Assembly: GCA_051362555.1 (NCBI GenBank)
Contig: CM120646.1
Coordinates: 10,478,001 to 10,542,000 of the forward strand
Reading direction: 5' to 3'
DNA length: 64,000 nucleotides
Source: Lingula anatina
Lineage: Eukaryota > Animalia > Brachiopoda
Made by a program: the position numbers and the translations under genes
Shown here: positions 37,601 through 62,502 of the stretch, one piece after another
Numbering within the stretch: position 1 is the first letter of the stretch
How the letters are laid out: each line of letters starts with the position of its first letter
Notes under the pieces: generated by a model
What the model was told of the DNA's origin: nothing
Seen by the model: only the letters and a program-made list of their open reading frames with translations
The model's database searches: none

Positions 37601-38198
37601 AAAAACAGCATAACTACTAAAATAGTGGCCCGATCATGCCGATTTTCGAACTTGACCTGCGTTTTAGTAAGATTGATTACTCCTGTGAGTTTCATGACAA
37701 CAGGCCTAACGGTTTTCCTTAAAATGTGTTTACAAGGTTGCATATATGCTGAAAAGTGAAAAAACAGCATAACTTCTACAATAATGGCCCGATCATGCTG
37801 GTTTTCGAACTTGACCTGCGTTTTATGAATATTCATCAGCTCTGTAAATATTAAGCCAAAAAGTAAAACTGCCCTCCACTTATCGTGTTTACAAGGAAAG
37901 TGCACGGCGCCGGCATCGGCATCGGCGACGGCGACGGCGACGACAGACGCAGGTGATGGCAATATGTACAGACACATCTGTGTCTGTACATAAAAATGAA
38001 TATTAGTGTGGGTTACTGCAAATTTGCAGGAATCAAATTGCTCAAACCTGCATCTTCTTCTAGTTTTGGTACTGAATCCAGTACAGAAGAAGTCGCCTCT
38101 ATTCTGGGACCTTCATTTAAGAATCGGCGAAAGTTTATTGTCCACAACTTTGGAGACCGAATGATGGCTGACCGCATTATCGATACCATGTTCACCAT
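4494..38198 (-). CDS. Divergent mitochondrial poly(A) polymerase (MTPAP)/TUT1-family nucleotidyltransferase-like protein, possibly catalytically impaired; about 13 exons
   Basis: Exons 38198-38048, 33990-33809, 30932-30838, 19096-18967, 18475-18254, 13353-13252, 10477-10444 (tentative), 8315-8279 (tentative), 8206-7977, 6722-6651 (tentative), 5980-5930, 5515-5199, 4781-4494. Motifs ARRSLL...LQTFG, YALVVF, VQPFGS...DLDLYL, LDVRVKPLV, TNFMVTALVVSFLQTRTPSILP, SQNSNTTGDLLLEFF and PWGLEALL occur in the same order as in MTPAP. Confidence 0.75.
4954..5173 (+). mobile_element. Miniature family A derivative (termini only)
   Basis: 5' AAAGCTGTCAAATGTACAGAC and 3' TGTGTCTGTACATAAAAA lie about 220 bp apart. 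Confidence 0.5.
8526..8773. mobile_element. Family C PIF/Harbinger-type MITE
   Basis: Long imperfect fold-back structure flanked by TTA on both sides. Confidence 0.7.
10644..10858. mobile_element. Family C MITE
   Basis: CCCATTTCCATAGATTAGATCGA...TCGATCTTAAATCTATGGGAATAG inverted ends; ATA on both flanks. Confidence 0.7.
12960..13168. repeat. Short tandem duplication with about 104-bp period and AAATTCATGG subunits
   Basis: TCATGGTCCATAAAAA...TTTTAAGATC...AAATTCATGGAACATTACCCTATTCCA occurs twice. Confidence 0.6.
13722..17931. mobile_element. Family C MITE split into 13722-13852 and 17816-17931 by the family B cluster
   Basis: The two halves join at GATAA|TTAC to reconstruct the 8526-8773 sequence. 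Confidence 0.75.
13853..17815 (+). mobile_element. Cluster of family B Helentron/HINE-like elements with 146-bp tandem array
   Basis: 5' AACTAGAGGATCAGAGAGGCGATACCGCCTC...GTACCACCAGC at 13936 and 14266; array at about 14810-15530; CGGA-rich tract; 3' hairpins GTACCGCCAGCG...CGCTGGTGGTAC ending near 16503 and 17812. Confidence 0.8.
19200..20053 (+). mobile_element. Family B short copy
   Basis: GATACCGCCTC...GTACCACCAGC head, one array unit, and ACCAGCG...GCTGGTGGTA tail. Confidence 0.7.
20673..28361 (+). mobile_element. Family A outer copy, interrupted by a second full family A copy
   Basis: Starts AACAAGGCAGCAAAGCTGTCAAATGTACAGAC, breaks after TCTCAATATTTGAA (about 21062), resumes at AAATGATGACAG (about 25165) and ends with the hairpin plus AAAAAA at 28361. 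Confidence 0.8.
21063..25165 (+). mobile_element. Family A full-length copy (about 4.1 kb)
   Basis: Both termini present; internal longer duplications, a 161-bp array at about 24230-25045, (GACGGC)n and the 3' hairpin. Confidence 0.85.
28521..28734. mobile_element. Family C MITE inserted in family B
   Basis: Reverse complement of 10644-10858; TTA duplication within the B unit CATAGTTAGATTGC. Confidence 0.75.
30361..30584. mobile_element. Family C MITE
   Basis: Same fold-back sequence; TTT on both flanks. Confidence 0.65.
30968..33681 (+). mobile_element. Family B copy interrupted by a 1-kb CpG-rich insert
   Basis: ACTAGAGGATCAGAGAGGC head, array units either side of 31313-32323, and a CTGGTGGTACTAA end. 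Confidence 0.75.
35876..37995 (+). mobile_element. Rearranged mosaic of family A copies
   Basis: One 5' terminus at 35876 and three 3'-type ends (about 36038, 36796 and 37995). Confidence 0.75.
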
Positions 38199-38491: not shown

Positions 38492-41400
38492 TTTTTATGT
38501 ACAGACACAGACGTGTCTGTACATATATATTGCCATCATCTGCGTCTGTCGTCGCCGTCGCTGTCGCCGTCGCCGTTGGCGTGCACTTTAACCGTAAACA
38601 CGATAAGTGAAAAACCGTTTTACCTTTTGGCTGGAAAGTTACAGAACTGATGAATATTCATAATACGCTGGTCAAGTTCGAAAATCAGCATGATCGGGCT
38701 ATTTTTAGGGAAGTTATGCTGTTTTTTCAATTTTTTCAGCATATATGCAACACCGTAAATACGATAAGTGGAAAACCGTTTTACTTTTTGGCTTGAAAGT
38801 TACAGAACTGATGAATATTCATAATATGCTGGTCAAGTTCGAAAATCAGCATGATGGGGCTATTTTAAGGGAAGTTATGCTGTTTTTTCAATTTTTTCAG
38901 CATATATGCAACACCGTAAATACGATAAGTGGAAAACCGTTTTACTTTTTGGCTTGAAAGTTACAGAACTGATGAATATTCATAATATGCTGGTCAAGTT
39001 CGAAAATCAGCATGATGGGGCTATTTTAAGGGAAGTTATGCTGTTTTTTCAATTTTTTCAGCATATATGCAACACCGTAAACACGATAAGTGGAAAACCG
39101 TTGTACTTTTTGGCTTGAAAGTTACAGAACTGATGAATATTCATAATACGCTGGTCAAGTTCGAAAATCAGCATGATCGGGCTATTTTAAGGGAAGTTAT
39201 GCTGTTTTTCAATTTTTTCAGCATATATGCAACACCGTAAACACAATAAGTGGAAAACCGTTTTACTTTTTGGCTTGAAAGTTACAGAAATGATGAATAT
39301 TCATAATACGCTGGTCAAGTTCGAAAATCAGCATAATCGGGGTATATTTAGGGAAGTTATGCTGTTTTTTCAATTTTTTCAGCATATATGCAACACCATA
39401 AACACGATTAGTGAAAAACCCTTTTACCTTTTGGCTTGAAAGTTACAGAACTGATGAATATTCATAATATGTCGGTCAAGTTCGAAAATCAGCATGATAG
39501 AGCCACTTTTATGTAAGTTATGCTGTTTTTTTATTTTTTTCAGCATATATATGCAACACTGATAACACAATATAAGAAAAACAGATATGCCAATTGTCAT
39601 TGTACTCACAGGAGTGGTCAATCTTACTAAAACATAGGTTGAGTATGAAAATCAGCATAATCGGGCCATTATTTTATAAGTTATGCTTTTTTTCACATTT
39701 CCTCAGATTCAATTCTTAGGTATGTTAATAGTCTCATTATTGAACTAATAAGATACGTAAAAGTGTTTGTTTGACATTACCTGCATCTTTACAACATTGT
39801 CAGTTGATTATGTAAAAATGATGGTAAATTTGTTATCGTGTATTGTGTAATGAAGTATCAAAAATGGAAATAAACACATATCATTGCAGTTTGTCAGATT
39901 CAATCATCCACTATGTTCAGAATCTTAGAATGGAGGAAATTGGACATTTAACACTGTTCTATTGGTATATTTCCCATCTCATCAATTTTCTTAGTTGGTC
40001 ATTTAAAAATGGCAGTAAATTGTTAATTTTGTTTTATGTTAAAAAAGTGTTAAAAATGGAAATGAACCCATTTCAGAAAAGTGCTGTCTTGTTTACATTT
40101 TGGCATTTTCAAGATGTGACTTTGAAGTTCCATGGTCCTGAAGACCTTTGCTAGTCACATTTTCTGAATATCCATGATACTAATAATTTATTATTAAAAA
40201 TTGATGGTCATTATGCTGTTAAACATTATGTAATATTGCATCAAAATTTGAAGAAACCCCTATTTTGTGCACTGCTCCTATGATGACCATTTAAGGAAAA
40301 TCATGTCACTTACTGTTCTCAAACTTACAGGAAAGAAACATGGGCCTAAAATACAGCTTCAGTAGGCAATGCAGTCTGTTTGGTAAATTTTTCTGGCAAT
40401 TTAACAGTTTTTTGTGAAAATTTAATTTTTCACATATTGGCATTTTCAAAGTGCGACTTAGAACCTCCACGGGCTTGAAGACCCATGCTAGTCACATTTT
40501 CTGAAAATCCATGACACATATATTTTATTATTAAAAATTGATGGTCATTATGCCGTTAAGCATTATGTAATGTTGCATCAAAATAGAAGAAAACACAATT
40601 TTTGGTGCTTCTGCCATGATGACCATTATGGGAAAACCATGTTACTTATGATTGTCAAACTTTCAAAAAAGAAACACAGGACTAAAATGCAGCCTGAGTT
40701 GGAAAAGCAGTTTAATTTGCTTCTTTTTCTGAAAGTTATACTTTTTAGTGAAATATTCATTTTTGGCATATTCACTGTGGGACTCGGAGCTCCCATGGAC
40801 ATGAAGTCGAATGGTAATCAAATTTTCTACATGTCCATGCTATTTATTGTCAATAATCAAAAATTGGTGCTAATTATTCTATAATTTATTATGTAATGTT
40901 ACATCAAAATTGACAAAAATCTTTTTGTACTGCTTCTGCAAACATTATGAAAAGAAAACTGTGTTACTTATTATTATGTTTAACTTACAAGTATGATTTT
41001 TAGGATTGGCATGCAGTTCAAATTAGAAAGCCAGCTCAATTGGGTTATCATTTATTATTGAATTTATGCAATTTTGTGTGAAATTATCATTTTTCTCATT
41101 CTGGCACTTTCAAAGTATAAACTTGAACTCTGATGGGCCTGAAGCCTTATGCTTTTACTTTCGTCGGTGTTACCTGTTCTGCATAATTAAAATTTGATAT
41201 TGACTGTGCGCAGTTAAACATAATGTATTATTGCATCAGAATTGGTAGTCTCCTATTTTGTACATTATTGTTTTGTGCTTTTCTTAAGATGTGACTTATG
41301 GGCCTGAAAGACCTTTGAGAGGGTCAGTCTGTAAATTTCCCTTGGGTATCACTTAGCTAATTTCAGAGTTATAAAGTGATTTGCCTAATTTAAAGGCCAT

Positions 41401-41530
41401 AAAATGAGATAACATAAAGCACACTTGTTGATATTTCCCTGTAAACTCCCAAAGGTTAAGCTCTCTGCTAGATTTATGATAAGGAAGCGGTGATAATTAT
41501 GCAGGTAAATTTTGTTTAATAGCGCAAATA

Positions 41531-41600
<70 letters not shown>

Positions 41601-42152
41601 AAACTCAAAGATTAAAAGTTTGAATAGCAGCTTCATTGGAATTATATTTACCTCTGCCAAGGAGGTTATATTTTCACCCCTGTTTGTCTGTCATCAACAT
41701 AACTCAAAAAGTTATGGAACGATTTTGCTGAAATTTTCAGGAACTGTCAGAAGTGGGCCAAAGAGGACAATAATCAATAATAATCAACAATTGCTGCCTT
41801 GGCAGAGGTCTGCACTCTCGGAGTGCTTTTCTGGTTTTGTTATGTTTTCCTTTATAATTTGTGATTTTTAACTCTCATCCGTGTAAGGCTCTGCACACTT
41901 TCTGTATTTTATATAGGTTAAGCTCTCTTAACTGGGTCACATATTTAGGAATTGGTGATAATTATGCAGGTAAATGTTGTTTAATATTGCAAATAAGTTT
42001 ACAAAAGAAAAAATTTGTGTAATGCCAACATTAATGCTATAGATGAATAACAGCGCCTTATTTTCCTCAAACACATTGGGGTTATTCATATCATGTAATA
42101 CAGCAAGATTTTGATTGAATAGCAGCTTTATTGGAATTTTTTTATTGTTTTT

Positions 42153-43469: not shown

Positions 43470-46400
43470 TCATGAATAATACTTCTGAATTCCCTTTGAT
43501 ATATATGAACTGAAGAAACTGAAAGAGTGACTTGCTACATCTGTTTGTGCTCTCAAAACAACGTGGACAGCAGTCTGACTACTACATGCCTGTTTGTCAT
43601 CATCCATCAACAGCACATCAATAGTAAATGGCTTAATCTTTTCGCCTCTGTCCCTTTCATGTTCTATAACATCCTGGGTGACCTTGATCTCTAGGTCAAG
43701 GTCATCTTTATGACCAGCATGTAAAAGATTTTTGCGTACTGCTTTGCGACGCAGCCACACAGCATGCTGTATGGAGCATTGTAAATGCATGAACAAGTTG
43801 TTTGGTTTTTTAGGAGAACTTGTTATTCTACTATCAGGAGATTGCTCTCTTATAGCACTATGCTGAGGAAAAAGGTCTCTTTCCTCTGGCTTTAGACTAG
43901 TCTTTAACTGACTCTTCACTAGCTCTGAATCAAATTTCTTTGGGTTTAAGTTCTTTAAACAGTCCTCTGCTGAGACTTTGTTGCCATCAATGGAATTATT
44001 TTCAGTCACCTTAATACTTTCAGACTGAAATACTTCCCTTTCCAGCTGAGAATAATCATCGAAATTGTTTTCCGCACATGCCTCATTCTGTAAAACTTCA
44101 CAATCTGTGTTCAGATTTGCATCACTTTTTGTTTTCTTTAAAATCTGATGATCAGAGAGGTATTCAGAACCACTGTTTTGTCTCTTTGGTGTTCCACTCC
44201 CACTACCAATAGCGGCCCCAATGGCATGACCCTCAGTTGGAAAAAGGGACAACGGTTCATTAACTAAATTTTCAACGGCAGTCTTCTCAATTTTGCCAGA
44301 TTGATCTTTATCATCTGCATCTTTTTGTTTCTTCGTAACATCATTCAAATGAAACTCCTCCATTTCAGTCACTTTATCAGTGTCATCCACAATTTTATTG
44401 GGTTTACTGTCCACTGCACTGAAAGAAAGTTCCGTCCTTTCAGTGACATCAGGTGTTTTTTTCTGCCATCTACTTCTGCCATCTACTTCGTCTTCTTCAC
44501 CAGGTGGCAGTACAGAATTTTGCTCGCTGCCTTTTTGTGAAATATTGTCTTTGAATAACAGAGTTGGGATGAGTAAACATTCTGCAAGGAGTTTATAAAT
44601 AAACTGACAAATCTCCTGCTGCCATGCATGTTTGAAATCAGGGGTTTCATTGAGTCGAAGTAAACATTTTTGGGAAAGGTGTGCAGGACAGAGAACAATT
44701 TCGAAGGAAGTTTCCAGGCAACTTTTCATATGTTTTCTTGTCCCATGCTTTGAAGGATGTTTGTTTTCAGCCAGTTTTAATTTTGAGATAAGATGATCAC
44801 TCTGATTGGGTGGAACAGAAGTGAACTGTGCTGGTATCTCATTAGATAAAAACATAACTAATCCCTGAAGTGAAAACTCATGGTCTGGGTTGTCCCTTAG
44901 AAAATCAGCCATCTTGGCTGCTGTCTGGAATTCTGAAATGATTCTTTCTTTCATCTTTTCGTTGATGTTAAATGCTGGGTTATGATTCAAGACAAAAGGA
45001 TCCTGAATAGCAACTGTTTCCACCTAGGGGAGAAAGAAATAAATGTTTGTTATGCCTTCAAGTCTTTTCAAATGTCAACGTTGCTGTGATATTGATACTT
45101 GAAGTGTACATTTTAAGTCAACTTATTATCATCAATTTTTGATGCTTAATATTTTAAAGGGATAAAAACACAGGTCAAGATAGCATATAGCAAAGTTTAC
45201 CTTATAACCTTCCATCTTAGCTGGCATTGTATCTGGGTTGAGGACAGTCACCAAATTCATGGTCTTGCCCGTTCTGGGGCAGATGATGCTTGTACTGAAG
45301 TCAAACTTGGCATAGAACTGATAGAAACCAAGCAAGAGCTCACCTGAAGAAAGGAAAGATATAATAAGTAATAAATATTAAATAAAGGTTAATATTCATC
45401 TGCTGCCTTAATATATTTGACTTATCAAATATTACAGTTAGGATATTTTTCATATGTACTGAACAAGGATATTTCAATCTATGGGAGAATGTGTGTGTGC
45501 ATGTGTGTGTGTGGGCGTGTGCATGAGTGCACAAAAAAAGAAAAAAAAACTTACCAACTGTCATTGTGTTAGCAGTACAAGGTATGCATGACTTATCTTC
45601 TACAAATGAGCAGTCCCAGCCCTCAATGACAACTTTCTCTTCTGGACCTGAAAAGGGCAATAATCATTTCAATCACTTTGGTCACATGATCACAATGACA
45701 TGACTTAAATTTTCAATATCTCATTATTTTTCAGTTAAAATTTCCATCTCACCAGAAACAGATAATCAGTTTCTACACACTTCTTTCGGCATGTATAAAA
45801 GTAGTTACTGTTGTAGCAATATTTTATTCAACAGCAACAAATCAAAAACTACATTAAAATAATCAATCACATGAAACCCACCACAATAATCGGCCAACTG
45901 CTGAATACTGGGAAGGATAGGCTTCTCTAAGTTCTGGAGGTAGAAAACTACAAGCAAACACAGTGCATAATTGTTCAGCTTGGTTCCTGATTGGATGTTG
46001 CCTGCAATGTCTCTGCACTTGGCCCAGTAACGTATAGCATAAACCAGAGGAGATAACCTCACATCCAGCTCTGTGCAGAGTCTGAGGAACTTGGTGTTTC
46101 TGAGAGCTAATCTGAAAGAGGAACACATTGGCCACATAAATAAAGTTAAAAGGTTAGGAAAGTAACCAAAGCTATTGAAAAAGAAAAAAAGTGCCCTTTT
46201 TTAAGACATTATCTGCAATCAATACTAAAAATTGCTTTTCTGACAGTTTATTTTTATTGACAAATTAAGAGAGGTAACAATTTTGTCTTATTTATATGCA
46301 TAAAATTTTTTCCAGTTGATAAACATCAGAGCTGTTGTGAGCCAACTCAGCAAAAAAGTGTCCTTTTTTATCTTCAATCAATACCAATAATTGCCTTTCA

Positions 46401-49400
46401 ATCTTTTAATATACTTGTTCACTGTATATATACTTGAGTGGTACCAATACATATTTGTTGTTACTGTCACTGAAAGTGAGACTAACAGTAATTATTGTAG
46501 TACACTAACCTGTTACTGACAGATACATCACATTTAATCCCCGAGGACCTGAAGGTAAATCTACACACTGGACACCTCTGACTGGGAACAAATACTACAT
46601 TCTGGCATTCTGGGATATGTCTCTGGATTGTTCTGCTGATTGCCTTAACCTGGTCAAAGCTTGTCATTTCTCTCAATTCCTCACGCGTATAAACTTTGAT
46701 TTGGCGCCTGTCTCTGGTGTCTAAATTACTAGGGCTCTGAAGCGTAAAGTGATGAGTGTCATTTTCATTTTATTTGATGTAAAAAAAAAATGTTCATCCA
46801 TAAAGGATCAATTTCTTTGCAACCTGAATATTAGCTGACCTTTTTAATTCCAATCTATTACACGTTAGTTCTCACTTCTGACTAAAACATTTTTCAACAG
46901 ATATTACATGTGGATTAAACATAATCATTCAAATTAAACTCTCACTTCCGACTCGGATAAAAATCTTTCACTTTTAAGGTCATCTTCATCTATGTGAAGG
47001 TCAAGAAAGATGTCCATGTCGCACCCCTTGACACCAAACTTGTTCACAGAGGATCCAAACTGGTGTATGGTACAGCCTATCAAAAATAAATAAACAATCA
47101 AATACATTTTAAAACAAGAGATAACTGAACTGAAATGAGTTTATTTCCATTGTCAACGCTTTTTACATAAAACAAAGTAACCCATTTACTTTCATTTTTA
47201 TATGATCAACTAAGAAAATTGTTGAGATGGAAAAATAACAATAGAACAATTTTACATTGTCCAATTTGTTCCATTATGAGATTCTGAACATAGTGAATGT
47301 CTAAATTTGACAAACTGCAATGACATGAGCTTATTTCCACTTTTGACACTTTATAACACAATACACGATAACAGATTCACCATCATTATTATATAATCAA
47401 CTTACAATATTGTTAAAATGCAGAAAAGGTCAAAAGAACTTTTATGTATCTAATTAGTTCAATAATGACACTGTAAACATGCCTAAGAATTGAATCTGAG
47501 GAAAAAACACTAATATACAAAAAAGGCATAACTTCATCAAAACTAAACCGATCAAGCTTATTTTCAAACTTGATCTGTATATTAGTCCTATGCCCTACAA
47601 GTTTTAAAGTAAAATATTACACGGTTTTCATGTTATCTGTATAATGGTGGATAAAATATGCTGAAAAGTGAAAAAAACAGCATAACTTTTGTAAAAATGG
47701 CCCAATCAAGCTGATCTTTGTACTCAACCCGTTTTTAAGTAAGACTGATCATTCCTGTGAGTTTCAAGACAATAGGCCAATCATTTTTTAATGTGTCATC
47801 AAAGCTGCATATATTTTGAAAAAAGCAAGAAAAAACAGCATAACTTTTTTAAAAATTGCCTGATCATGCCGATTTTTTAACTCAACCTGTATTTTTTGAA
47901 TGTGCATCAGTTCTGTACGTTCAAAGCCAAAAGATAAAATGGTTTTCCACTTATCGTGTTATCAATTAAAGTGCATGACACATCATGAAAATAATGAACC
48001 AAATATATGTACAGACATATCATAAAAATAATGAACCAAATACTTTTTTGTTAATGTATATTTGAAATATTGTAAATATAATTTTTAAAATGGATTTTAA
48101 GAAAAAATGACACAGGTAAAAGAGCTGCAGTGAATATGCTATGGCATACTAAATTACAATTTTACTTTACTCCACAAACATTTATCTAATAATTTGTCGC
48201 ATGAAATGCAAACTCAAACTGCTTTTGAGACAAGATACGTTACATCCTGTTGTAAATTTCAACAATAATTTCAATTTCCCCATGATAAAAGATTATTCAT
48301 ACCAAGTCAAAAAAGCCAAATTCCATCCTATCCCGAAAATCTCTTCAAATTCCATTCATAACTCTTTAAGTTGGGCAACTCAGACTGGTGACAAAGAGAA
48401 AAACAGACAGACAATAATAATAACCAAAAGATAGTCAACTGAGGGTTAAGAGATAACCTTCATGACTGTGGTAATTCTCTCACAAAGCACACAATAAGCT
48501 TGCAATGATCACATGAGTTCAGGGCCCCCTGTTTACCTGGGAAGAAAACTGCCAGCTGTTTCTGCAGTGACTGACACAGCTGCTGTCTCTGCTGGTCATC
48601 CTCTTGGGTCAGCTGGAGAAGGGACATCAGCCTGACCATCTGGCCATCAAGCTGAAACACATAGAGATACTGGGTTCAGGGATGAGACAGCCATTTACTG
48701 AAAAAGTCTGAAAATATGGCATAGGGTCCGAGGGGACCCACATCAATCTCTAAAATTATATTTTGGCTCCCAAAAGAAATGGAATGCGGTGATTGTTGGA
48801 AAAATCTTACTACTGACTTACTGCAATCGAATACACCAGTGCTGCAGTGATTGAGTACAATATATTACGGATACTGAAAATGCAATACAATAGTCTAAGG
48901 ATAGAACATGCATATAGAGAGAGACAGCAATGCCCCATCTAACATATTATGGTAACCGTTGCCTTTTTTGCATAGAATAGCTTACAAGAAACAAGACAAC
49001 TCTGGAGCAAAACAGTGACTTAGTTCAAGTGATACTGTGATAGTAAACCTATCAGCACAGTGTCTGACATTGTCTGCATCATAGTGACATTGTCTGCATC
49101 ATAAATATGTATTGAAAAAAAGCTTTACGTACTAGTAAGTGTTTAAATAAGGTGTCACTTGTAAAAGTTGAAAAAGTGAAACCAAAAACATCCCCTTACA
49201 GATTGTATTTTCCTCAATTCCTCTAGCACTGTTTTTCTGTCAACCACAGGAACTTCAGAATCTTTGTTTTGAGTTTTCTTTGTTGTGTCATGTCTATTTC
49301 CCAATCGTGCCGGCTTGAAATTGTCCATTTTGACTTCCCTGGGCTTGACCACCAACTTGTGGTCACCGGGTAGCCTGTGGTCAGACTGACCAAGCACCTG

Positions 49401-51426
49401 CTGGGCTGCATCCTTACAGTCAAATTCAATGATGGCATACAAAGACTGAAAATCAATATGGTTGTTTAACTTTAAGTGTTACCAATATCACTCTTGTTTC
49501 ACTGCTTGGGCAGTGTTGAATAGCAGTGCTTTTTTAATTTAATTAAAAGCATGTGACGTTATACAGAGACTGTTATAATATCAATTTTGATATTTGATCA
49601 CTGATTTTAAGCTGACAATATTTATTCATTATATATTAAGCAAAATAACTTTAAAAACTACACATATTTTAAAGCAATAATAACTCTTCCTTTGAGATTC
49701 AAAAATCCGCATGAAATACATTGTAAACAACGCATGGAAATATATTCTATTGTATTTTACCACTAAAACGGCCGTTATTGTAGGAAAACTAAAATCTGTG
49801 CTTGTCAATATGGCTTTCGATCCCTTTTTTCCGCTCGACAAGTGCATTCGTTGCTAATGACGTAATGGTGTCACGCGGATTCTCGCGTTCATTCGAGACC
49901 AAAATAACATGGCGGGAAACCCTCAGACGTAAGTTGCGAGTTTTTGTACAGTGCGTCGGATAACGAAAAGCCCAGAATGGCACACATTGTGGATATAAAA
50001 GCGTTTTTAACAAAAAAGACGAATATATCTCATGAATCTTATATAGTGTTGTTGTTGTCTGCTTTTCCCGCGGTTTTAAGTAGGTCACCAGTGACTTTGC
50101 AATGTCAGAGAGAGCTCCGTCAGTTAAAATCTCTTAAGAGATTTTAACAAAAAACCGTACGTTTAGGAAAAAAACCCTGGATTAACTTTGAATGCAGGAA
50201 TGGGGTCGTTGGCCATTGGTAAGTACGGGAAAATTGCCGTTTACTCCAGGAAAATCCAATTTTTGGCCAAAACGAAGAGTTATTATGACTTTAATATCTA
50301 ATACACAGACTTAACAAAAATCATTTTGGGTTATAATGGTTTAATGACATGAAAAATTTTTTATCTCAGAGGGATCATCTACTGTACTTTTAGAGTAAGA
50401 CACTACCTTAACTTTGTCCATCACAACTTTCTTTATATTTCCAAATTTCTGGAAGTGTTCCTTCAATTGAGCTGCGCTGAGTTTAGTGTTCCCATGGACA
50501 CCCCTCACAAATACACTGCAACTGGCCTTCTCTGCCGCCTTGTTCTTCATCTGTAAGAGACGCTGATGACGCTTGCCCTGGATGTGCCTAGCCATACTGC
50601 CATCTGAGACAAAAAACATTTCTCGTGTAGCATTTTATCCACATCACATATAAATTGAAATCACCAAACTGAATATATGTGCTTTACTGTTTCACTCATG
50701 CCAAAATTATTTTAAAAGACTAAATTGATTTTAACCTTCTTTTTTTTAACTCATTTTTAACAATGTTATGGTAAAACAATGTGGTAGAATAAAGCCATTT
50801 TTAGATTCATGAACTGATCAAGGTGGCATTTACTCATACTATATATATCTTTTGTCTAAAACTGCTTTCTGTATTCACTCATATACAGAACATGTCAGTT
50901 GCCAAGCATCTACTACACAAGTCCTATGCACCATGAAAGGTATAAACTGAGGGATGTTATTGCCCCCTTCAAGGCTTCAGTACTGTACATGGGCTTCCAG
51001 CCAACAGTTTCAAGGGGGGGGGGTCTTTTCTGAAGAAGTGGACCTTACAGTTTACAACCCTTATTTGATCTTAACTGAGAAATTGAGCAGGACCTTAGTC
51101 CTAGATCAAATTTTAATCAGAGAGGACGTTTTAAAAGCAATAGGAGTCTGGACGGTACCTTCTAACCTCTAAAAAACCCCTCCACCCCACTCTCCGCCCT
51201 TGTACGAGCCTGGTACATCCTCCGATCACTACCAGCATGAAGTAAAAATCGTTTTTGATGGATAAAATAACTGATTTTTGACGGATACTACAAACTGAAC
51301 AGAAATGTTGCTACCTCAATGTTTTTAGCACTTAAGATAAGTTCTTAAAATGGCAAAAAAATACTAACCAGACTGATCTCTTCCAACACACACGACAGCA
51401 TCGCAAACATCGCAATGAACCTCCAT
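43470..51426 (-). CDS. TUT1: Terminal uridylyltransferase 1 / speckle-targeted PIP5K1A-regulated poly(A) polymerase (Star-PAP); 10 exons
   Basis: Exons 51426-51369, 50603-50407, 49445-49200, 48651-48537, 47076-46946, 46736-46510, 46111-45882, 45647-45555, 45343-45201, 45023-43470. Matrin-type Zn finger (CDVC...HIQGKRH), RRM (SVFVRG, YAIIEF), NTase ([22 protein letters not shown]), PAP-associated [10 protein letters not shown] and a KA1-like C-terminus ([12 protein letters not shown]). Confidence 0.92.
47112..48020 (+). mobile_element. Older, 5'-truncated family A copy in a TUT1 intron
   Basis: Similar to 2015-2700 and ends in a degenerate ATGTACAGACA. Confidence 0.65.
49673..50290. mobile_element. 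Kolobok-like non-autonomous DNA transposon in TUT1 intron 2
   Basis: TTAA on both flanks; imperfect TIR AGCAATAATAACTCTTCC versus reverse complement AGTCATAATAACTCTTCG; CpG-richer interior. Confidence 0.7.
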
Positions 51427-53528
51427 CGGTAGTAGCAAACGCTTCCGTTCATTCTCAAATGGGTCTTCCTATATGAAACTAGCTGGATGCAAAAGACATA
51501 CTATGTCAGGTTTCAATATGGCCGCTCAATGCCATTATAGACCAGACATTTGCTGTCATCTCGGGTCGGAGGGTTGATTTAAAAAAAGGCCTAATTGAGC
51601 ATAATAAACAGTATGTACCAGGTGCTGTAACCCTTGAGTACAGTTTGGTTAAATGATTTTGAATAGCTGGTTTTGAATGTATTCAATTCAGAAACACGAG
51701 GTAAAATATGTTAGGTCATTTCTTAAAACCTATCTGCAGCCTAAAGATGTATTACATTTTACCATTATCTCGTGCATAGATGAAATTGATTCATCACTGT
51801 ATTTTACATTTTATCAGAACTGTAAATTAAATCTTGTTGAGCCAGTTATCTAATGTACATGTAAAGCCAGCAAATAATATTATTTTATCATTCTCTCTCC
51901 AAGCTGTTGGGTTTTCCCCTTAGTGTAATGTTTAACACAGTATCATTCTTATTAATCATAATTGTGTCTTTTTAGAAAGAATAAAAAAACAGCAATACTT
52001 TGAAAAAATTTATTACAAATAAAGTGTACATCAACTTTATTCTACAAAAAATATCCAAATAAGTTTATTTCAATAAGTTACATAATTATTTTTCTAATTT
52101 TGTATCTATTCAAAATTCAACATGGAATTGCTGCAAATATAAAGCATAGCAATCATTCACAACAAAGTCTGTGTGTGCAAGGGATTGACTGGTATTTCTG
52201 AAACCTCAATACTAAGAATTCAAGACATGATGATGTCCCTTATTTTGAAATACTTTTAGATACCTGATATGTCTACACACAGATGGAAAAAGTCTATTAC
52301 AGAATATAATTCACAAAAAAATTATAAAGAAAAAAGGCAAAATAAAAACAAACCTTCACAATAACGACTTGGAAACCCTGGATGTCAAACAAATTTATCC
52401 ATATAAACTCATTTATTTCTTTTTTGTTATTGTAACCTTCTACTCTTGGGACAAAAATTTTGCATTACTACATCATTACTGGAAAACTACATTATAAAAC
52501 AATAAATAATGTTTCAGAATAAACTGGATCCACAGAAAAAAAAATTCTGGACATATGCAACAGTTAACTGTTTTATCACAACACAGTGTACAGTATAATT
52601 CACACTTCATGAAATTCAAAATGAAGTCACTTTTCTAGCATTCTTTCTAAATTTATATCTGATCAAAAGTCAAGATTGTCAAATATTTGTCTTTTGTTAT
52701 CAAATATTTTGTTAGCCAGCTAACAATTTAAGTATGTAATTATTATAAAAATCATAAATTTGCATTATTTAATAAAGATATTTCTGAGACAGCTCTAGAC
52801 ATCATCTCATAGTGTTTACTATGAATATCATCAACTGGACTGAAATATTGACCACACTTTCATTTTGGTGATAAATCCTAATATAAAATTTTGTTTAAAA
52901 AAACAGAGAAAAGAAGATTTCAAGAATAAAAAAGATATCCCTTTCCTATTGCACAGATCCAGTAAATATAGTAAGTAGAAAGCAAAAAGTAAAAGTTGCA
53001 GTTACATCAGAGCTTGCATTTCTAGTGTGCAAGCTATAATAGACATAATCAGCCTGGTATAAGGTCATTTGCTCTATAAATAGATTTATACACTTACAAT
53101 GAAAAAATAAGAACATTATATTAAATAAAAACTTAGTCTAGTAAAATAGTTACTTCAGTAATATATCTATACCTTCACAGAATGATATTATAAAAAAAAC
53201 AGTATATCTTAATAATATATATTTTAAGCATCTACATGTACATGTACTATATGTGCACATAGCTCCCTTCACCCACATGGAATAATTACAACAACAAAAA
53301 CTTTGCTATCATTTATAAAAAACATATTTTAAAATATTTTTTTACATATTATATCTCATAATTTCTTCAAAGTAAAAGCAATACATGTATTTTACCTTCT
53401 CCGATGAAAAAAAAAATTCATAATTCAGACTGCACAAAAGCATTTACTATGTGCAAAGTATCTAATCCAGTCATTTTTCCTTCACTCCTTTTAAAATGTA
53501 ATGTTATATTATTCAGCTTGTCTTGGTT

Positions 53529-53690
53529 TTATTTTCTTGCAGCACCCTCTTCGTTCACAAGGGCCAAGATAAGCTGACGGTAGTCTCCTGAGATGTCATC
53601 CTACAAAAAAAAAAATAGTTTTCTATTTTTCTACAAACAAATGGTATTTTTTTATCAGACTAAAAGCTTTTTTGAGTTAAAGAGATAGAC

Positions 53691-53741
<51 letters not shown>

Positions 53742-56700
53742 AAGATAGATATAGATAAAGATAATAAAAATATCTCATTAAATGATAAAGTATCATTGTG
53801 TACCATACATAATGATTTAATTTAACAAAAACTGGCCATTAAAGAAAATTATTATTTATATTTTTTCTACTCACAGCAATCCATTTCCCAAGTGACTGGT
53901 TGTACATTGCCATGAAAGCTTCCTTAATCTGGACCATGTCCACCTCACAGCGAGTGACCACTATGCGGACCAAGGCATCATCATCTGTGCCCAGACCTTT
54001 CATTGCTTTGTGGAGCTTCAGCGCAAACATGGCTGGCTTGTTCTTGATGCTTTTGACTGTGGACAAATAAGAAATATTATCCTAATTTTCATTAAAATAA
54101 AGTGATTCATAAATGAGACTTTTTTTAAACAAAAAATAAGGTTATTACTTGGAGGACATATCAAAGGACATCAGTCCCCCTTCTTTATATTGAATAAAAA
54201 AAAAAGAAAACATAAATCAATCTCAAATTTTCATCACACTTTAATGTATATTGAACATTAGACCCTGATATAACAAAAAAAGAAAAAAACACTAGAAATT
54301 TCAACATTTTTCTTCAATTGCCTTCAATGTCCTAGTAAAAACTTGAGAAAATCACGATCTATATCACCATCTTTAAGTTCATATTTATTGTTTGAAATTG
54401 TTGACACCCTCATAATGGAGATGAAACTGGTGAATTATTGAGCTAAATCTATAATCAGAAACTGAGAACTCAAGAACAAGTCAAATAGATTGTAATTTTC
54501 TCAACATTCTGGATAAGGCATATCATACCTTGATGTCTAAAGAAAATTGTTGAAAAAAAAAATGCAAGGGTCTAACACACTGTACCTGTATACCTTTAAC
54601 TTAAAGGTAATATATCAAATTGATACAAAATCTAGCAATTAACCATTACCATGTAATAACAATTTCATGGAATGCCTATATGAAGCTTGATGAAGATTCA
54701 TTTCATAACATAATCAGTAATAAAATAAAAGGCCCCATACCAACTGTCAGCATGCCATTTTTGATATCTCCTGACATTTCACTGCTGATTGATGCCTCAA
54801 TGTCCTTCCCAGCCAATGTTTCATACTCCTCAAATACAGCACGGAGGTGTGCGAAACTGCGTGATACAATGATGACATTAAATCTGGATTCATCCGTGCC
54901 CCATTTCTTTTCTCCTGCTTGATATAATTCCTATTAAAAGTAAAATTCTCAAGTAAATTACCCAATCATTTAAACTTTTAATCATTTAAAATTAATTCAA
55001 TCTTACATTCAGGCTTATAGTTAGTCTCTCATCAACCTACATGTTAACATTTTCTGTTATGTTTCTATTGATAATTATATAACAAGTACCTGTGCATCCT
55101 GCTGGGCTTGAGTCCTGTCAAATGTTGAACTCTCATCTCTGTTCCCTTGTAGCAGTGATACCAGTAGACGCTTGAAATGGCCAGATGTGTCATCCATTAT
55201 GGCCTTCTCCAACTCCTTGTTGAACACTTACAAAATATTAGGAATAAAGGCAGTTAAATAATAATAACCTGCTAGTATGAGTATATTGCTATTGCATTTT
55301 GCTATGAATTTAGGATAGACCTTCAAATTGTATCGATAACAAATTTTATAATAAATAAAGATCCACTCTCTCTGTCATAGCATCTTTTCTTCTCTGTATG
55401 TACTATTTCCTCAATTTAAGCATTTTTTTTTGGGGGGGGGGTGCATTTCTTTTTCTTATAATTCAGTTCAAGATATTTTAGATGTTTTACAACTAATGAT
55501 TTCTCTTTCATCATAAGATGTGTAAAGTCATCAAAAAAAAAAAGGGGAGATCACCCTGAGTTTCACTGGAAACTTAACTGAAGTTTGCTTAAATCAGCAT
55601 GCCTCTGCAGCGATCAGTGAAAATGTATCTCAGGGCGAAGAAGGTGTATCCAAAGGATGAAAATAACCACACTTTGCAACATATCATCTCATACTCACAT
55701 CTCTTGTAGGCCTCTTTGATGGCTGCAATCTGTGCATTGGTCCTGGTACAAATAATCTCTATAAGGCAGTCATCATCTGTGCCCAAGCCCTGTAAAAATA
55801 ATGCACATTGTATATAAATCAACAAAAAAACACAAACTAATTCTGATGAAGGACTGTAAAAAGTATGATTTCCCCTCCCAGTCCCCCAGGTCACCATTAA
55901 GTGTAAAAGTACTAATTAATGAAAAAGGTACTTCATGAAAATATGCCTTATGTTACTTGCTATCCACCCCATCCCCCACTTTTTTAATCCTTGAAACAAA
56001 CCCTGACACATATGACCTCTAAAACACACGGTAACATGGGTGTACACAGAAAACACTCACTTTCACTGCTCTCTGGAGTTCATATGCATCATAATCAGCC
56101 GGGGCCAAACATAGAGCATGAATGGCCTTGTAGAAATTGCCGCTCAGCTCTCCTTTGAATTCGCTGATCAAGTCCTGGAAAGTTGAGATAAAATATGCTC
56201 ACTCCATGTATACATCATACTTTGTTTTGAACTTTAAAATTTCTACCCATTGAACTAAGGAGGAATCAAGTTAGCATGCATATGTTGTACCAGTAAGTTT
56301 ACTAATCATCTTTGAAGTTTTAGCATTTATCATTTAATTCAATGGGGAGAGAGGTTCTTTTGCTGAAGAAGTGGACCTTTTTATTGCATAGTGAGAAATC
56401 ACAAAAAATCAAGATTTAATTTAGATGCAGAGGAGAATTTTCCTTGGCCAAAAGGATGGTTATTTTAAGCTGCCCCTCCCCCCCCCCTTCCCCCACCTAC
56501 AGGCCTTGCCTACCTTCCCAAACATGGTCTTGAACTGTCTGACAATATCCTGGCGCTGAGTGCTGGTCCTGTACCCCATCACCTGGATGATGGCTTTCTC
56601 ATCTGTGCCTGAAACACCATTTAATTATAATGATTATCATGATATTTATATTATAAATGAAGTGTAAACAAGGGCTTATTCAAATATAAATCCCATAATA

Positions 56701-57428
56701 TTATCTGATTAATTATCTTTTACTTCAGACAACCCTCCTCCCCAGCCCCATATGTCAGCGTTTATTAGAAAGAAAGTCCACTCACATGTTTCTTTAAGAA
56801 AAAATACTTCTGAATGGTAAATTAGATACATTATGCTAAAAGTGAAATCAAGAATGAAAGGGCTATTTTGGCTAATAAAAGGAACAAAATGGGTTCAAAA
56901 GTATCTATATCCAGTAAATTGTCAGCCAAACATAGAAAAGGTTGCTAAGTGTATAAGATTTATAAGTAAGACATTTCAGGAAATTGAACTAAATTTAGTG
57001 TTTTATTTTCTCTCTCCAGTGCTATCATCTGCTGCTTATTGTGCTCTACACCCTTACCTAGTCCTTTCATAGCTTTCCTGAGCACTTCACAGTCCTGCTG
57101 AACATTGAAACCTTCATATGGCTTCAGAGTGCCCTCTTGCTACAAAAACAAATATATAGAAACAATAATAATTTTAACTTATGTGCTAAAATATAATATA
57201 GTTACATATTATATACCATACATAAATTTGGATCCACTTTTCTCTTATATTGGCATTTCTTAGGCCAGTTGGCTCTATCTTACTTCTGACATATTTCAGC
57301 ACGCCATAAGATTACGATATTGACCATTGTTAACTTTTTTGGGAAAGGTGACATACATATTATGCTTCCCTCTTCCACTACAATACATCTATATTCTGAA
57401 CTTCTATATATATCACAATTTGCGCGGG

Positions 57429-57466
<38 letters not shown>

Positions 57467-60400
57467 TGTTTGTGACAACACAACACAATTGTCTGAATAT
57501 AGTGCTTATATCAATGTGTTTGCTGAGCAGGAAATCAACAGTGTCAGATACTATGAGAGTTGTACCTCATACTCCTCTGTCTCAAAATAAGGCTCTGGAC
57601 CTTTAGGCTCAGGTTCTGCCTCAGGTTCTGGCTTGGGTTTAAGCTTCATTGGGGGTGGTGCTCCTTCTCCTTTCTTACTGGCCCACTTAGTTGCTGCAGC
57701 TACTGTCTTGGCAGCCTCTGCCGGTTTCTTGGCAGGAGCAGTTTTCTGAGGTGGAGGTTTCTGAGGCTGTTGGGTTTTTGGCTGTTGGGTTTTTGGAACT
57801 GGAGCCGTTTTCTTTTTCTTTGGAACACCATATTTCGCTAAGCTTACTGTCAGAATGTAGCTGTCATCATCTTCTTCAAAGTCTGCGCCTATCACCTATA
57901 TGTACAAAGAGGAAAAGGGTATTTAGCACTAATTATTTGCCTTATCCCTCAGAAATGTACAATTTTCACCTGAAAGTGCACCTGGAAATTTGACATTCAA
58001 CTTAAATGAGATATTACACATTACCTGTCATTTATGACTGACACATTAAATTGTTGCATGAACTTACCAACTGATATTTAAAAAAATACACAAAGCATTG
58101 AACCTAACTCTCACATTCAATTTTGGTAATATATTTGGCCACTTCAGTAACCTTGTAATAGGGGAAAACTGTAATTAACAAAGAAATCACCATTTTCATC
58201 CCTAAAAGGCTATCCAGTCACTTTTTTAGTTTAAACAATACAACAATTAACGAAAACCATGACCAAAACAGTTTTCTTAAGAGCAATCAATGTCATTAAA
58301 ATGTAGAAATAAAACACAAAGAGGTCCATACCCTGCCCATCTTAGGTTCTGCTATAGTTTCCTTGAAATCTGGATTGTTTTTGGCTAATTCTAGGAGATG
58401 GGCATAAATATGCTCAATCTGCTCACGCCAGTTTCCTGGAATAAGTAAAATATCAATACATATAAAATATCTTACAGATTTTCTTTAGTGGACATGATAG
58501 ACTTATCCATTGATATGCTAAATATTATTAGATAAATGCAAAAAGGTATCTTATAACATGTCTCTGTGAAATAATATAATTTGTTACAGTGTATTAATTA
58601 AAACGTACAAAATTTGAAATATTTATCGTTAGACTAGCTCTTTCTCACACACACACGTATGCACACACACATGTGCACACACACACACACACACACTTAC
58701 ACACACACACACACACACACACAACCACACAGTCACACTAACCATTTCCTGGGCTGCAAGGATTAGCATCAGGCACTGTCTTCACAGGGTACTCAATGGC
58801 TGGCTTTGGAGGGGTGGTCTGCAATGCCTGCCTCACTTCTGCTACTGTCTTCTGACGAGTTTCATCCAATTTCTGGGTTAACATCTCAGCTACCATAGGA
58901 CCACGGTTTGGATACAAATTCTGGAAAAAGATTTTAAAGATGTTATCAACAAGATTGATAACTGTATTTTTGGTGTATGCAGGAAGTTGAAAGCAAATGT
59001 GGGAAGGGGGGAGGAGGGCAGGCTGCAATCCAATTATCTATTATATCAAAATTGTGGACTGTTAAATCTTTGCTCCCCCCCCCCCCCAAAAAAAAAAATA
59101 AATAAATGTATATTTCTGGAAATAATTTGACTATCATAAAGTTCTGTTTAAAAATTAACTCAAAATAATAATAATAATTATTATTATAATCATACTAATA
59201 ATAATATACATAAAAAATAAAAAGCTGAGAGTCAAACTATCTCTAATTTCTATACTTACCCCCATCATCTGATTGGTGTAGTAGCCGTACTGGTTCCCAG
59301 TGGATGAGGCCCAGGGGGGTGGTGAGGGGTTGGGTCCTGGCACCCAGGGCCGTGGATTGGCTGCAATATTGGAGGCCTGGTCTGGGGGCACTCCCCATAC
59401 ATTGACCTGCGTTCCGGAGTAGTTGACTGGGTTGAATGGGCCGTCCATGTCTGGCGGGGCTGTATAGAAAAACAGGACTTATGTAACACAAACAAAAAAG
59501 AAATAAATTGACTGAGTGAGGCACTTAATTCAAGATTTCTGATATATAACTTGAATACTTCATAAGCTCTGGTGTTAGTATGTACCTGACACTGGTCTCA
59601 TGTCTCCATTTTCCCATGCTTTTCTTGGAGTGGTTGGCTTTTTATCCTTCTTTTCCTTGTCCTTCTTGTCTTTTTTATCTTTTTTCTGAAAATTCATGAT
59701 CATATGAAATCATTATATATTATAAATTTTTTAAACAAACAAAAAATTACAGCTGAAACATCTTTTAATTATAATAAGCAATACGGCAGGCTGATATACA
59801 GTAAATTTTGTTTTGACTGAAAATATTATTCATAAAAAAAATAGATTGGTTCAGGCTGTATAATTCAAATTTAAGTCAACATAAAAATAAATATTGCCAT
59901 AGTCACTGTCTGTAGTTTCTAGGAATCACCATAAGTATCAGTTTATTCTTTACCCTCTTTAAAGATAAAAATAAATGTCAATAAACATGTATAATATACC
60001 CTTCTTGTTTCCTTTTTGTCAAGATACAAAAAGATTGCATTATTGCTAGCTAAATGAAAAACTAAACCTTCTAGACTAAGTTATACCTTTTTCTTTGGTA
60101 CAGATCTCTCAGTATCTGTTGTCCTATTTGTAAATCTGGAAGTGTCGGTGCTGGTACTGATAATGGTGCTGCTGTCATCAAAATCGCTGTAATCAGATGA
60201 GTCAAAGTCGTCCACTTGGAATGTCTTGGTTACTACTGCACTTTCATGAAGTCCATCCCTGAGAACAAGAAAACAACATTTTTTCATTTCTTCAAAATAG
60301 AATTTCTGTAACAAATCAGCCTTTACAGTTTGGAAAACACACCCAGAAAATGGCTCTGGTGTTAGGGGGCACTTTCTTTTTACCCCAATTGCAAATAAAT

Positions 60401-61536
60401 GCACAGTAAATGGCTAGTGTTGTCTGCGTCAAAGGTTGCATAATTTCATTCAACATAAACCAGAAGTGGTCTAGAAATACTTCAATCACCTGTATTATAA
60501 CAAAAATAAATGACTAATGTTTTAAGGCCAAATGTCAGTTTACTATACAGTAGTGAACCACTACAGATTTATCCTGAATTTAAGAAGAGTAAGACTAAAA
60601 TTTTGGTATTAAAAGTGAAAACAAAATTTGTCTAAAATTCTTTTTTAAAACTGGTCTTTTGGCTTAATAAATAATAATAAAAGCTGCATTTAGAAAAGTC
60701 CAAACAAAATCTGTGTAGTAATAATCCTCCCCACACCCCCCATCCCCCCCACACCCCCCCAAAAAAAAAAAAAAAAAAACACTTGACAACAATTCATACT
60801 TGTGTTATCTCTCTGTCAAACAGTCTACACTTTGATAGTGGTCCAGCTTATAAATGTATTAGGAAGTACCTGTATGTCTGTGTGTTTTCTGTTGAATGGA
60901 AGGGAAAGGGGGGCACAAGACTAGTACCACATGAATTTATATATTTTGGTTTTACCATTGGTTAAATTACTATTCGTACTAATCAGTTCAAAATATATTA
61001 ATTCATCTTGGCAAATAAACAATTTTCTTTTTTCTTCCTTTCTTTTTAAACATTCCTTTCATCTTGTCATTTTATTATTCACAAAACAGTGGTAAGCATA
61101 AGTACTAAGACACAGCTACAAATCAAGTAATGAGTTTTTCTATGCAATATGCATTCAGAATACAAATTGGACCTACCTAGCAATGGCTATGACTTTCAAA
61201 AGTCTCTTTCCTGGTTTGAGAGTAAATGGTCCCCTGTACTTGAATGTTTGTCCCACCGATGACTTCCTCTGAAATGGGTCTGGACGGCTGCCATCTGTTG
61301 TGAAATAAAGTTTGCAACCAGAGGTGGCTGAAAAGAAAGAAAGAAAACCCTTGGTAATGATATTTTGAAAGATCATTATCTGGTTTGTAACAACAGGTGT
61401 AGCACTAAAATAAGTTTAAAGAACTCATAGAAATGACATTATGAAAGATTTATAATTCCAAGTGCCAATTCTGAAAGACTATACATATCAGACTATACAT
61501 ATCAGACTATACATAGTCATTATGACTATTAGGTGT

Positions 61537-61621
<85 letters not shown>

Positions 61622-61735
61622 ACAGCAATTAAGCTCTATACAAGTTGCAATATCTATATGGTTGCTTGGTTTCCCTGGAATGGGGTCCCTCAGTGGGATG
61701 ATGGATGGAATCCCTATAGCACCTGCACTTGGCAT
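53529..61735 (-). CDS. Annexin with DZANK1-like N-terminal half (Ig/Fn3-associated domain, DZANK1 central conserved block, Pro/Lys linker, four annexin repeats); 16 coding exons
   Basis: Phase-compatible GT-AG exons: 61735-61624, 61327-61177, 60258-60087, 59685-59586, 59459-59260, 58920-58743, 58435-58332, 57895-57566, 57139-57058, 56608-56514, 56174-56061, 55789-55699, 55226-55090, 54930-54741, 54056-53875, 53600-53529 (TAA). Annexin motifs: [42 protein letters not shown] and [19 protein letters not shown]1-like motifs: [35 protein letters not shown] and [18 protein letters not shown]...IAEPKMG. Confidence 0.88.
53683..53757. repeat. (GATA)n microsatellite
   Basis: Read directly; last annexin intron. 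Confidence 0.95.
58646..58737. repeat. Imperfect (CA)n microsatellite
   Basis: Read directly; abuts the donor at 58742. Confidence 0.9.
61542..61617. repeat. (GT)n microsatellite
   Basis: Read directly; starts right after the donor of the first coding exon. Confidence 0.95.
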
Positions 61736-62502
61736 CTTGACTGATAAACACGTTTGTTACCTGGACATGGCAATACCTAGGGGAAAATGTTGAAAATTAA
61801 TTGGAAAACTTATGTGATGACAGTGCATTAAAGGAACAGTATTCACTGGCAGGTCCTAGATATTAAAGGAAGAATGTGCCGTGTAGAATCGAAAATGGTG
61901 AGTATTCAGTAAGTAAGTATTCAAGTTTACTGGCATGAAAATTCATGCCTCAGCACTCCTGTTTAACCAGTTAATATAGCCATGAACAGCAGTACATGTA
62001 CTCTCTTGTTTTGCTGTTTATCTTGTATATCCAAATATACACTCAAGCCAAATACTACAATTGTAGCATGCCATACATATTCATGTGTTAGCACTCCTAT
62101 ATAAGTTCTTTGATTTGTACTTACCCTTGTGTTTTATAATGTATTTATAATTTTGCTAGATGTCAAACAGGATTCTCTCAAAGTTGCTTATACTACATTC
62201 CTAACAGAAGGGGCTTCAATACGCAAAAGATGTCATATTACTGGATCTATCAGAAAATGTGTAGAGAGAAAGAAGATCTGAATTAATATATGAATTACAT
62301 TTAAGTGGGCAACGCACTGTATGACAGCTGCATACGAAACCATTGTCTGATTTACATCTAGAGACAGATCTAAAAGGAGACGGAACAACCCCTCAGGAAG
62401 AAAATCATCCCTAAGGTAGCACATTTCAAGTTTTTCAATCATTACTGGGAAGGAAGACCTGGGCTCAGACAGATAAATGATCTTTTCCATCATTGCTACC
62501 CC

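Follow-up and report, generated by a model that had tools for sequence, protein, structure and literature searches.

A DZANK1-type head joined to a four-repeat annexin in Lingula anatina: an ancient, apparently uncharacterised union of two known protein kinds

Introduction

DZANK1 localises to the ciliary base and to microtubules, including cytoplasmic ones, and binds DYNLL1/2 as well as NINL, the latter via its zinc-finger region (residues 244-317; PMC4617706). In bovine airway cilia, a DZANK1 dimer together with an LC8 dimer has been assigned to the outer A-tubule of the transition-zone doublet (bioRxiv 10.64898/2026.06.11.731632). In annexins, the type II calcium site has a GxGT loop (PMC3795353). 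Here we analyse a 64,000-nucleotide stretch of the genome of the brachiopod Lingula anatina (“the window”; GenBank assembly GCA_051362555.1, contig CM120646.1, positions 10,478,001 to 10,542,000), in which a gene on the minus strand at 61735-53529 encodes a head of two DZANK1-derived domains followed by a four-repeat annexin core. A first-pass annotation, made from the sequence letters, had proposed such a chimera. Our results indicate that the gene is a real and ancient variant joining two known protein kinds that has apparently remained uncharacterised so far.

Domain architecture

The N-terminal half of the predicted protein resembles DZANK1. Pfam places an Fn3_assoc domain at residues 33-101 (expectation value, E = 4.4e-10), and a profile of nine N-terminal halves, searched against PDB sequences, retrieved human DZANK1 (11xu_G1, 752 amino acids, aa) at E = 3.8e-49, the sole other row of the two returned having E = 0.43. 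The DZANK1 match comprises two stretches, 2-145 (independent E, i-E = 6.4e-31) and 450-529 (i-E = 1.3e-14), so both blocks named in the first-pass annotation are present and in order. An Atlas structure search ranked DZANK1 clusters first for both domains, with template modelling (TM) scores of 0.88 for aa 1-110 and 0.52 for aa 293-366. The profile and structure matches thus confirm the DZANK1 motifs named in the first-pass annotation, and the likeness of the N-terminal half, which had been put forward for checking, is significant.

AlphaFold2, run on a 100-sequence alignment, models three confident units joined by disordered segments: an immunoglobulin (Ig)-like sandwich (aa 1-105), a helix-helix-hairpin domain (aa 301-360) and the annexin core (aa 450-765), all with a predicted local distance difference test (pLDDT) value of about 95. 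The second, alpha/beta domain aligns across 100 sequences and lies at about 465-535 in DZANK1, before the ankyrins. It is followed by a Pro/Lys-rich linker (aa 364-440) with 18 Lys or Arg and 19 Pro residues. A first fold on a nine-sequence alignment had a mean pLDDT of 48; Foldseek with that fold gave no match at E <=0.001 and only Ig-like folds, with 11XU not among the rows listed (library to April 2026). A wide structural search, which barely probed the second domain, returned only annexin and Ig folds, an Atlas feature search with the second domain yielded no usable match, and a homodimer prediction for aa 292-366, in which the alignment was not used, scored 0.06.

The C-terminal part contains four annexin repeats (Pfam PF00191, E = 2e-94), and its modelled core superposes on annexin VI with Z = 39.4 and a root-mean-square deviation of 1.8 over 316 residues. 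Calcium-site motifs occur in all four repeats (GLGT at residues 475, 547 and 706; WGT at about 632), and an acidic cap comes after each; in a type II site, this cap lies about 40 residues beyond the loop. The best four-repeat PDB matches are 6TU2 (360 bits), 1AEI and annexin A7 (346 bits). By sequence and fold the protein is an annexin, with predicted Ca2+-dependent lipid binding.

Several hallmarks of DZANK1 are missing from this architecture. The Lingula protein has no CxxC anywhere in its 769-aa frame and no match to the double zinc ribbon family (DZR, PF12773), and no ankyrin family matches it at E <=0.1. The first-pass annotation had read the zinc ribbons as absent and had placed an annexin core, after a Pro/Lys linker, where the ankyrins would be; both readings hold. 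CxxC is absent from every fusion protein checked (55/55). A TQT-type motif, located about 40 residues before the SPG motif of the second domain, is found in 109/109 listed DZANK1 proteins and in 11/11 fusions from ambulacrarians, whereas it occurs in 0/44 fusions of the protostome type. Following the TQT anchor rule of PMC6607443, we infer that it is the LC8 site of DZANK1. Protostome-type fusions carry a near-invariant motif, N[YH]xGTQ[VIM]N (42/44), that is found in 0/120 ambulacrarian or DZANK1 proteins and could be a replacement LC8 site. An ICE1 peptide with GTQI binds LC8, yet many anchor-bearing peptides, including a TQV peptide, do not (PMC6607443), so GTQ[VI]N as an LC8 site is a lead only. 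Zinc ribbons, TQT motif and ankyrins are all lacking, and the tree does not place the protein with DZANK1 orthologues (see below); the Lingula protein is not DZANK1 itself, though two of its domains are clearly homologous to it.

Gene structure and transcription

Assembled by coordinates, the gene runs from an ATG at 61735 to a TAA at 53529 and has 16 exons, with 15 introns that are all GT-AG and a coding sequence of 2310 nt (769 aa plus stop) free of internal stop codons:

Exon 1 (coding part), 61624..61735, minus strand: start Met, aa 1-37; opening strands of the Ig-like domain of DZANK1 type; N-terminus conserved in homologues
Exon 2, 61177..61327, minus strand: aa 38-88; Ig-like core (Fn3_assoc / CHB_HEX_C_1), Pfam E = 2.7e-7 on the exon alone; DZANK1 match
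Exon 3, 60087..60258, minus strand: aa 88-145; final Ig strand, leading into an acidic Ser/Thr-rich disordered linker
Exon 4, 59586..59685, minus strand: aa 146-179; disordered Lys/Asp-rich segment and conserved “AW” motif
Exon 5, 59260..59459, minus strand: aa 179-245; N[YH]xGTQ[VIM]N motif, in a region of pLDDT <50
Exon 6, 58743..58920, minus strand: aa 246-305; short helix 271-277, roughly where DZANK1 has its TQT motif; SPG start of the second DZANK1 domain
Exon 7, 58332..58435, minus strand: aa 305-339; pair of helices from the second DZANK1 domain (which has no Pfam family), pLDDT >90; seen in RNA
Exon 8, 57566..57895, minus strand: aa 340-449; beta-hairpin ending the second DZANK1 domain, then the Pro/Lys-rich linker, then a conserved “PYF.TE” motif at the junction; RNA reads on both flanking joints
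Exon 9, 57058..57139, minus strand: aa 450-477; annexin repeat 1 begins
Exon 10, 56514..56608, minus strand: aa 477-508; annexin repeat 1
Exon 11, 56061..56174, minus strand: aa 509-546; annexin repeats 1-2
Exon 12, 55699..55789, minus strand: aa 547-577; annexin repeat 2
Exon 13, 55090..55226, minus strand: aa 577-622; annexin repeat 2 with linker; the acceptor is weak but confirmed by 9 RNA reads
Exon 14, 54741..54930, minus strand: aa 623-686; annexin repeat 3
Exon 15, 53875..54056, minus strand: aa 686-746; annexin repeat 4
Exon 16 (coding part), 53529..53600, minus strand: aa 747-769 and stop TAA

The single open reading frame (ORF) of 16 phase-compatible exons without a stop, as first annotated, was recovered here. 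Its product is identical at 768/769 residues to the Lingula anatina RefSeq protein XP_013384296.1 (P0039, labelled “annexin A11”), the mismatch being residue 740. A second Lingula RefSeq model (P0001, 731 aa, LOC106160214) is identical up to residue 622 and lacks exon 14. These two models are near-identical copies on scaffolds of 721 kb and 168 kb, and may represent a haplotype duplicate or a recent duplication. By eye, the minus strand at 61757-61768 shows an upstream ORF of three codons that shares the frame of the start codon and lies just inside a candidate acceptor (about 61777), and a candidate non-coding first exon ends near 63385.

We aligned same-species raw RNA reads from 4 of the 9 listed runs (about 6-25% of each) to positions 52000-58600 only. 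All nine introns between exon 7 and exon 16 were found as RNA joints. Both joints that bridge the DZANK1-like half and the annexin, which the first-pass annotation had singled out, are among them: 58332>57895 was covered by 10 reads and 57566>57139 by 12, each in three of the four runs, with 0 reads on either in run X4. The exon 6-7 joint is represented by nine loose-ended reads of run X1 whose letters match exon 6, and the joints among exons 1-6 are predicted from the matching RefSeq model and collinear homologues. Transcripts were at low depth in all four runs examined.

A gene-model artefact, in which a truncated DZANK1 and a neighbouring ordinary annexin were joined by prediction or by rare read-through, would fit the empty run X4, an RNA alignment that covers exons 7-16 only and the fact that no one read or pair is shown across exon 7 to exon 9. 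Against it, the bridging joints have read counts like those of joints inside the annexin: run X1 gives them 3 and 5 reads, within the range of 1-17 for the latter, and thus, at this low depth, no sign of a dominant annexin-only transcript. Exon 9, the annexin's first, has no Met start, and no alternative exon joined to it appears above the three-read listing threshold. The architecture also recurs in many phyla, where contigs of 3.1-5.2 kb hold entire ORFs of 792-1159 aa and barely exceed them in length (1106 aa on 3572 nt; 1110 aa on 38 contigs of <=4276 nt); these contigs are too short for introns and hence probably derive from single mRNAs. The relatives largely refute the artefact, which we regard as scarcely credible, and the DZANK1-like half and the annexin are one spliced, expressed gene.

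Beyond the stop codon, RNA reads on the gene's strand extend well into 52000-53500, where they represent a long 3' untranslated region or the start of the next gene. Compared with the other runs, run X7 has reads that diverge more from the window (60/150 at 90-95% identity), which suggests a different population or a cryptic species under the same label.

Phylogenetic distribution

Searching with aa 1-345 gave 37 matches, 36 of which combine Fn3_assoc with annexin; the exception is a partial Lottia model. Those with a name come from the brachiopod, annelids (Owenia, Paralvinella), nemerteans (Lineus, Tubulanus) and chiton, gastropod, bivalve and cephalopod molluscs, and most have eight annexin repeats. 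The same architecture is thus found in other lophotrochozoans, where the first-pass annotation had suggested looking for it. A profile search of 1.84 billion representatives extended the range: annexin was present in 8 of the 68 representatives scanned with Pfam (of 150 listed), including Macrostomum, Schistosoma, Echinostoma, Paragonimus, Anoplocephala, Priapulus and Asterias. Protostome-type fusions carry 4-11 annexin repeats and no ankyrins. Pfam marks 11 annexin stretches in the Priapulus protein (P0076) and 6 in that of Paralvinella (P0028), and the Echinostoma model (P0077) has a long Pro/Gly-rich insert ahead of the core.

The Asterias rubens protein XP_033629438.1 has the Ig domain, the second domain, ankyrins and annexin, and lacks zinc ribbons. 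When it was used as query, 11 among the 120 listed of 217 matches shared this Ig/second domain/ankyrin/annexin architecture. They represent starfish, brittle star, sea cucumbers, sea urchins and crinoids, so that each of the five classes of echinoderms is covered, and also the hemichordate Glandiceps. The remaining 109 are DZANK1 without annexin, nearly all from vertebrates. No chordate or non-bilaterian fusion is among the matches listed; as many matches are unlisted, loss of the fusion in vertebrates is likely rather than demonstrated. No Lingula DZANK1 turned up among the same 120 matches, which does not imply its absence. Three DZANK1-like proteins (P0083 of Glandiceps, P0090 of Batillaria, and P0196) have ankyrins and lack both zinc ribbons and annexin, so Glandiceps has an unfused zinc-less protein alongside its fused gene; the Batillaria protein clusters with true DZANK1, and its model may be faulty. 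Judged by these matches, the fusion is not a one-off, and its bilaterian-wide reach had escaped the first-pass annotation.

Origin of the fusion

We built an unrooted tree from 170 columns of the two shared domains; a first tree used 49 of 100 alignment rows, and 12 rows (long branches or near-duplicates) were then dropped, leaving 37. Protostome fusions (100/100), ambulacrarian fusions (99/97) and a DZANK1 group (99/96) form separate starred branches, the last consisting of zinc-ribbon DZANK1 from vertebrates and from an annelid, together with a mollusc protein. The unfused zinc-less Glandiceps protein falls outside the DZANK1 group, near the fusions. Approximately unbiased (AU) tests, for groups chosen after the trees were seen, rejected a grouping of the protostome fusions with annelid/mollusc DZANK1 (p 0.001) and one of the ambulacrarian fusions and the Glandiceps paralogue with vertebrate DZANK1 (p 0.005). 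The separate branch and the first of these tests bear out the earlier view of the Lingula protein as a paralogue of DZANK1. The annexin cores of Lingula and Asterias score 392-393 bits against each other, compared with 360 and 341 bits for their respective best four-repeat PDB annexins, although these annexins, from vertebrates and Hydra, are poor stand-ins, and against Asterias the scores of some protostome cores are lower (322-344 bits).

The simplest reading that fits the trees is one duplication and one fusion in early bilaterians. DZANK1 would have duplicated before the protostome-deuterostome split; one copy would have shed its zinc ribbons and acquired an annexin tail, as still seen in echinoderms and the hemichordate, after which the protostome line would have lost the ankyrins and the TQT motif. 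That ankyrins and annexin occur together in echinoderms and the hemichordate suggests that the annexin was appended and the ankyrins lost later. The domain swap proposed at first stands in so far as an annexin occupies the place of the ankyrins, though probably not as a direct exchange.

Two aspects of the data limit the case for a single event. The branch uniting both fusion groups without the Glandiceps paralogue reaches only 86/74, on 170 columns and in an unrooted tree, and the core comparison is made with PDB annexins of vertebrates and Hydra. The fusion may thus have arisen twice, in protostomes and in ambulacrarians, which would concern the history alone and be compatible with either function considered below. 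Ankyrins, TQT motif and linker motifs set the two forms apart, and these make up two separate starred groups, with the unfused Glandiceps protein near both; on the other hand, both AU tests reject the DZANK1-derived groupings, and the Lingula and Asterias cores are closer to each other than to the PDB annexins. We consider two origins unlikely, if not negligibly so.

Function

We tentatively propose, at somewhat less than even confidence, that the product acts as a calcium-switched tether between ciliary-base microtubules and a neighbouring membrane. The two DZANK1-derived domains would dock on microtubules in the way that DZANK1 docks on the doublets of the transition zone, and the Pro/Lys linker of 75 residues would provide reach. 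Upon a rise in calcium, the annexin core would attach to acidic lipids in the ciliary or periciliary membrane, and relatives with eight repeats could connect two patches of membrane. In the larvae of oyster, flatworm and sea urchin, unspecified annexins serve as common markers of the ciliary bands (PMC10396302), and such annexins also mark the apical organ in Nematostella and sea urchin (PMC4300403).

Several points count against such a tether. The annexins of these two papers are not tied to this gene in the text accessible, and the support they lend is circumstantial. Ciliary location and membrane binding are, for this protein, predictions only. The parts of the preprint at hand do not give the tubulin-contacting residues of DZANK1, so the retained domains may not be its tubulin-docking parts. 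Both mapped or likely partner sites of DZANK1 are gone, namely the NINL-binding zinc fingers and, in the protostome type, the TQT-type motif (0/44).

The main rival is a non-ciliary, cytoplasmic annexin whose DZANK1 head has been repurposed as a general interaction or oligomerisation module, with a role in vesicle traffic, membrane repair or cortex anchoring. The loss of zinc ribbons, ankyrins and TQT motif, the low-depth transcripts in all four runs and the new conserved, protostome-specific motif absent from DZANK1 are in keeping with it; DZANK1 is, moreover, also found on cytoplasmic microtubules (PMC4617706). Against this, both DZANK1 domains are strongly conserved, with their order kept across phyla. 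The animals named as carriers are also rich in motile cilia. We regard the non-ciliary role as plausible, yet on balance doubtful.

A third reading takes the protein as a dynein-linked cargo adaptor, whose head engages NINL and LC8 while the annexin grips vesicles bound for the ciliary base. It builds on the partners of DZANK1, NINL and DYNLL1/2 (PMC4617706), on the conserved GTQ[VI]N in a disordered region, which resembles an LC8 anchor, on the LC8 binding of a GTQI peptide of ICE1 (PMC6607443), and on the TQT-type motif kept in all 11 ambulacrarian fusions. NINL binding maps to the zinc fingers, however, and the absence of CxxC from all 55 fusions makes a NINL link unlikely; many anchor-bearing peptides, TQV included, do not bind LC8 (PMC6607443), and LC8 is a general hub, binding to which would not imply dynein transport. 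The NINL/dynein transport scaffold of the first-pass annotation is weakened by the missing zinc fingers and, in the protostome type, the missing TQT-type motif, and we judge the adaptor to be quite improbable.

Joining the proposed tether to the single-fusion history gives a fuller account: a second DZANK1 gene of early bilaterians, fused to an annexin, would have become a calcium-gated link from transition-zone doublets to the ciliary membrane that survives in spiralians, priapulids and ambulacrarians and was lost in vertebrates. We hold this combination to be rather unlikely as a whole. If true, it would give molecular access to what calcium triggers at the base of motile cilia in invertebrates, for example arrest, shedding and resealing.

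Flanking sequence

Directly downstream of the fusion gene and on the same strand, 43470-50634 (minus) carries exons of a gene for a non-canonical poly(A)/uridylyl polymerase (PF22600, E = 3.5e-8 on 46485-46769), with zinc-finger-like and RNA-recognition-motif-like exons recognised by eye; we take it to resemble TUT1/Star-PAP. A second nucleotidyltransferase-like gene lies at 4494-8247 on the minus strand (PAP_assoc, E = 0.0013, below the curated cut-off) and is possibly a paralogue of the first. Interspersed repeat families occupy 21494-22965, 36443-38112 and 40492-41871, with near-identical ORF-like stretches at 22567/40492, 21494/41509 and 36443/37531 and one 14-mer present four times. A scan of the window for RFX X-boxes gave 14 matches against 12.7 expected, with 0 upstream of the fusion gene.

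Discussion

The architecture is implicit in automatic Pfam records labelled annexin A11, annexin A6-like or DZANK1-like. The first-pass annotation had anticipated a label of simply annexin, and RefSeq indeed calls the Lingula protein “annexin A11” and the mollusc relatives “annexin A6-like”. Our literature search, thin on subscription journals and judged from its listings, found no description of a DZANK1-annexin fusion. A 2017 Biological Chemistry review of atypical annexin architectures may list it and, given also the thin coverage, an earlier mention is quite possible. The accessible parts of papers on parasite annexins (PMC3795353) and spiralian motif genes (PMC7441323) do not mention the fusion under the terms tried.

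An old and widespread animal gene family thus stands behind three misleading labels. The natural fusion points to which DZANK1 domains form a reusable module, the union of these domains with a calcium-dependent membrane binder suggests a calcium-regulated link between microtubules and membrane, and the echinoderm form serves as a living intermediate for the domain history.

Among known proteins, DZANK1 (human Q9NVP4, 752 aa; PDB 11XU chain G1) has the same Ig-like Fn3_assoc and alpha/beta domains in the same order; the Lingula protein differs in having no zinc ribbons, TQT-type motif or ankyrins, with the Pro/Lys linker and annexin core in their place. The ambulacrarian DZANK1-like/ankyrin/annexin proteins, which are database predictions for which our search turned up no paper, share with it the Ig and second DZANK1 domains, the lack of zinc ribbons and a C-terminal four-repeat annexin. 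They differ in that their ankyrins and TQT-type motif are retained and the N[YH]xGTQ motif is absent. Annexins A7/A11 and Hydra annexin XII (B12) likewise have four repeats with type II calcium-site motifs, whereas the tail of A7/A11 is of low complexity and the 449-residue head of the Lingula protein consists of two folded DZANK1 domains. Vertebrate annexin A6 has eight repeats, as do most mollusc relatives and Owenia, and the label “annexin A6-like” probably reflects this repeat number; the proteins of Lingula, nemerteans and Macrostomum have four, and all of these relatives, unlike A6, carry the DZANK1 head.

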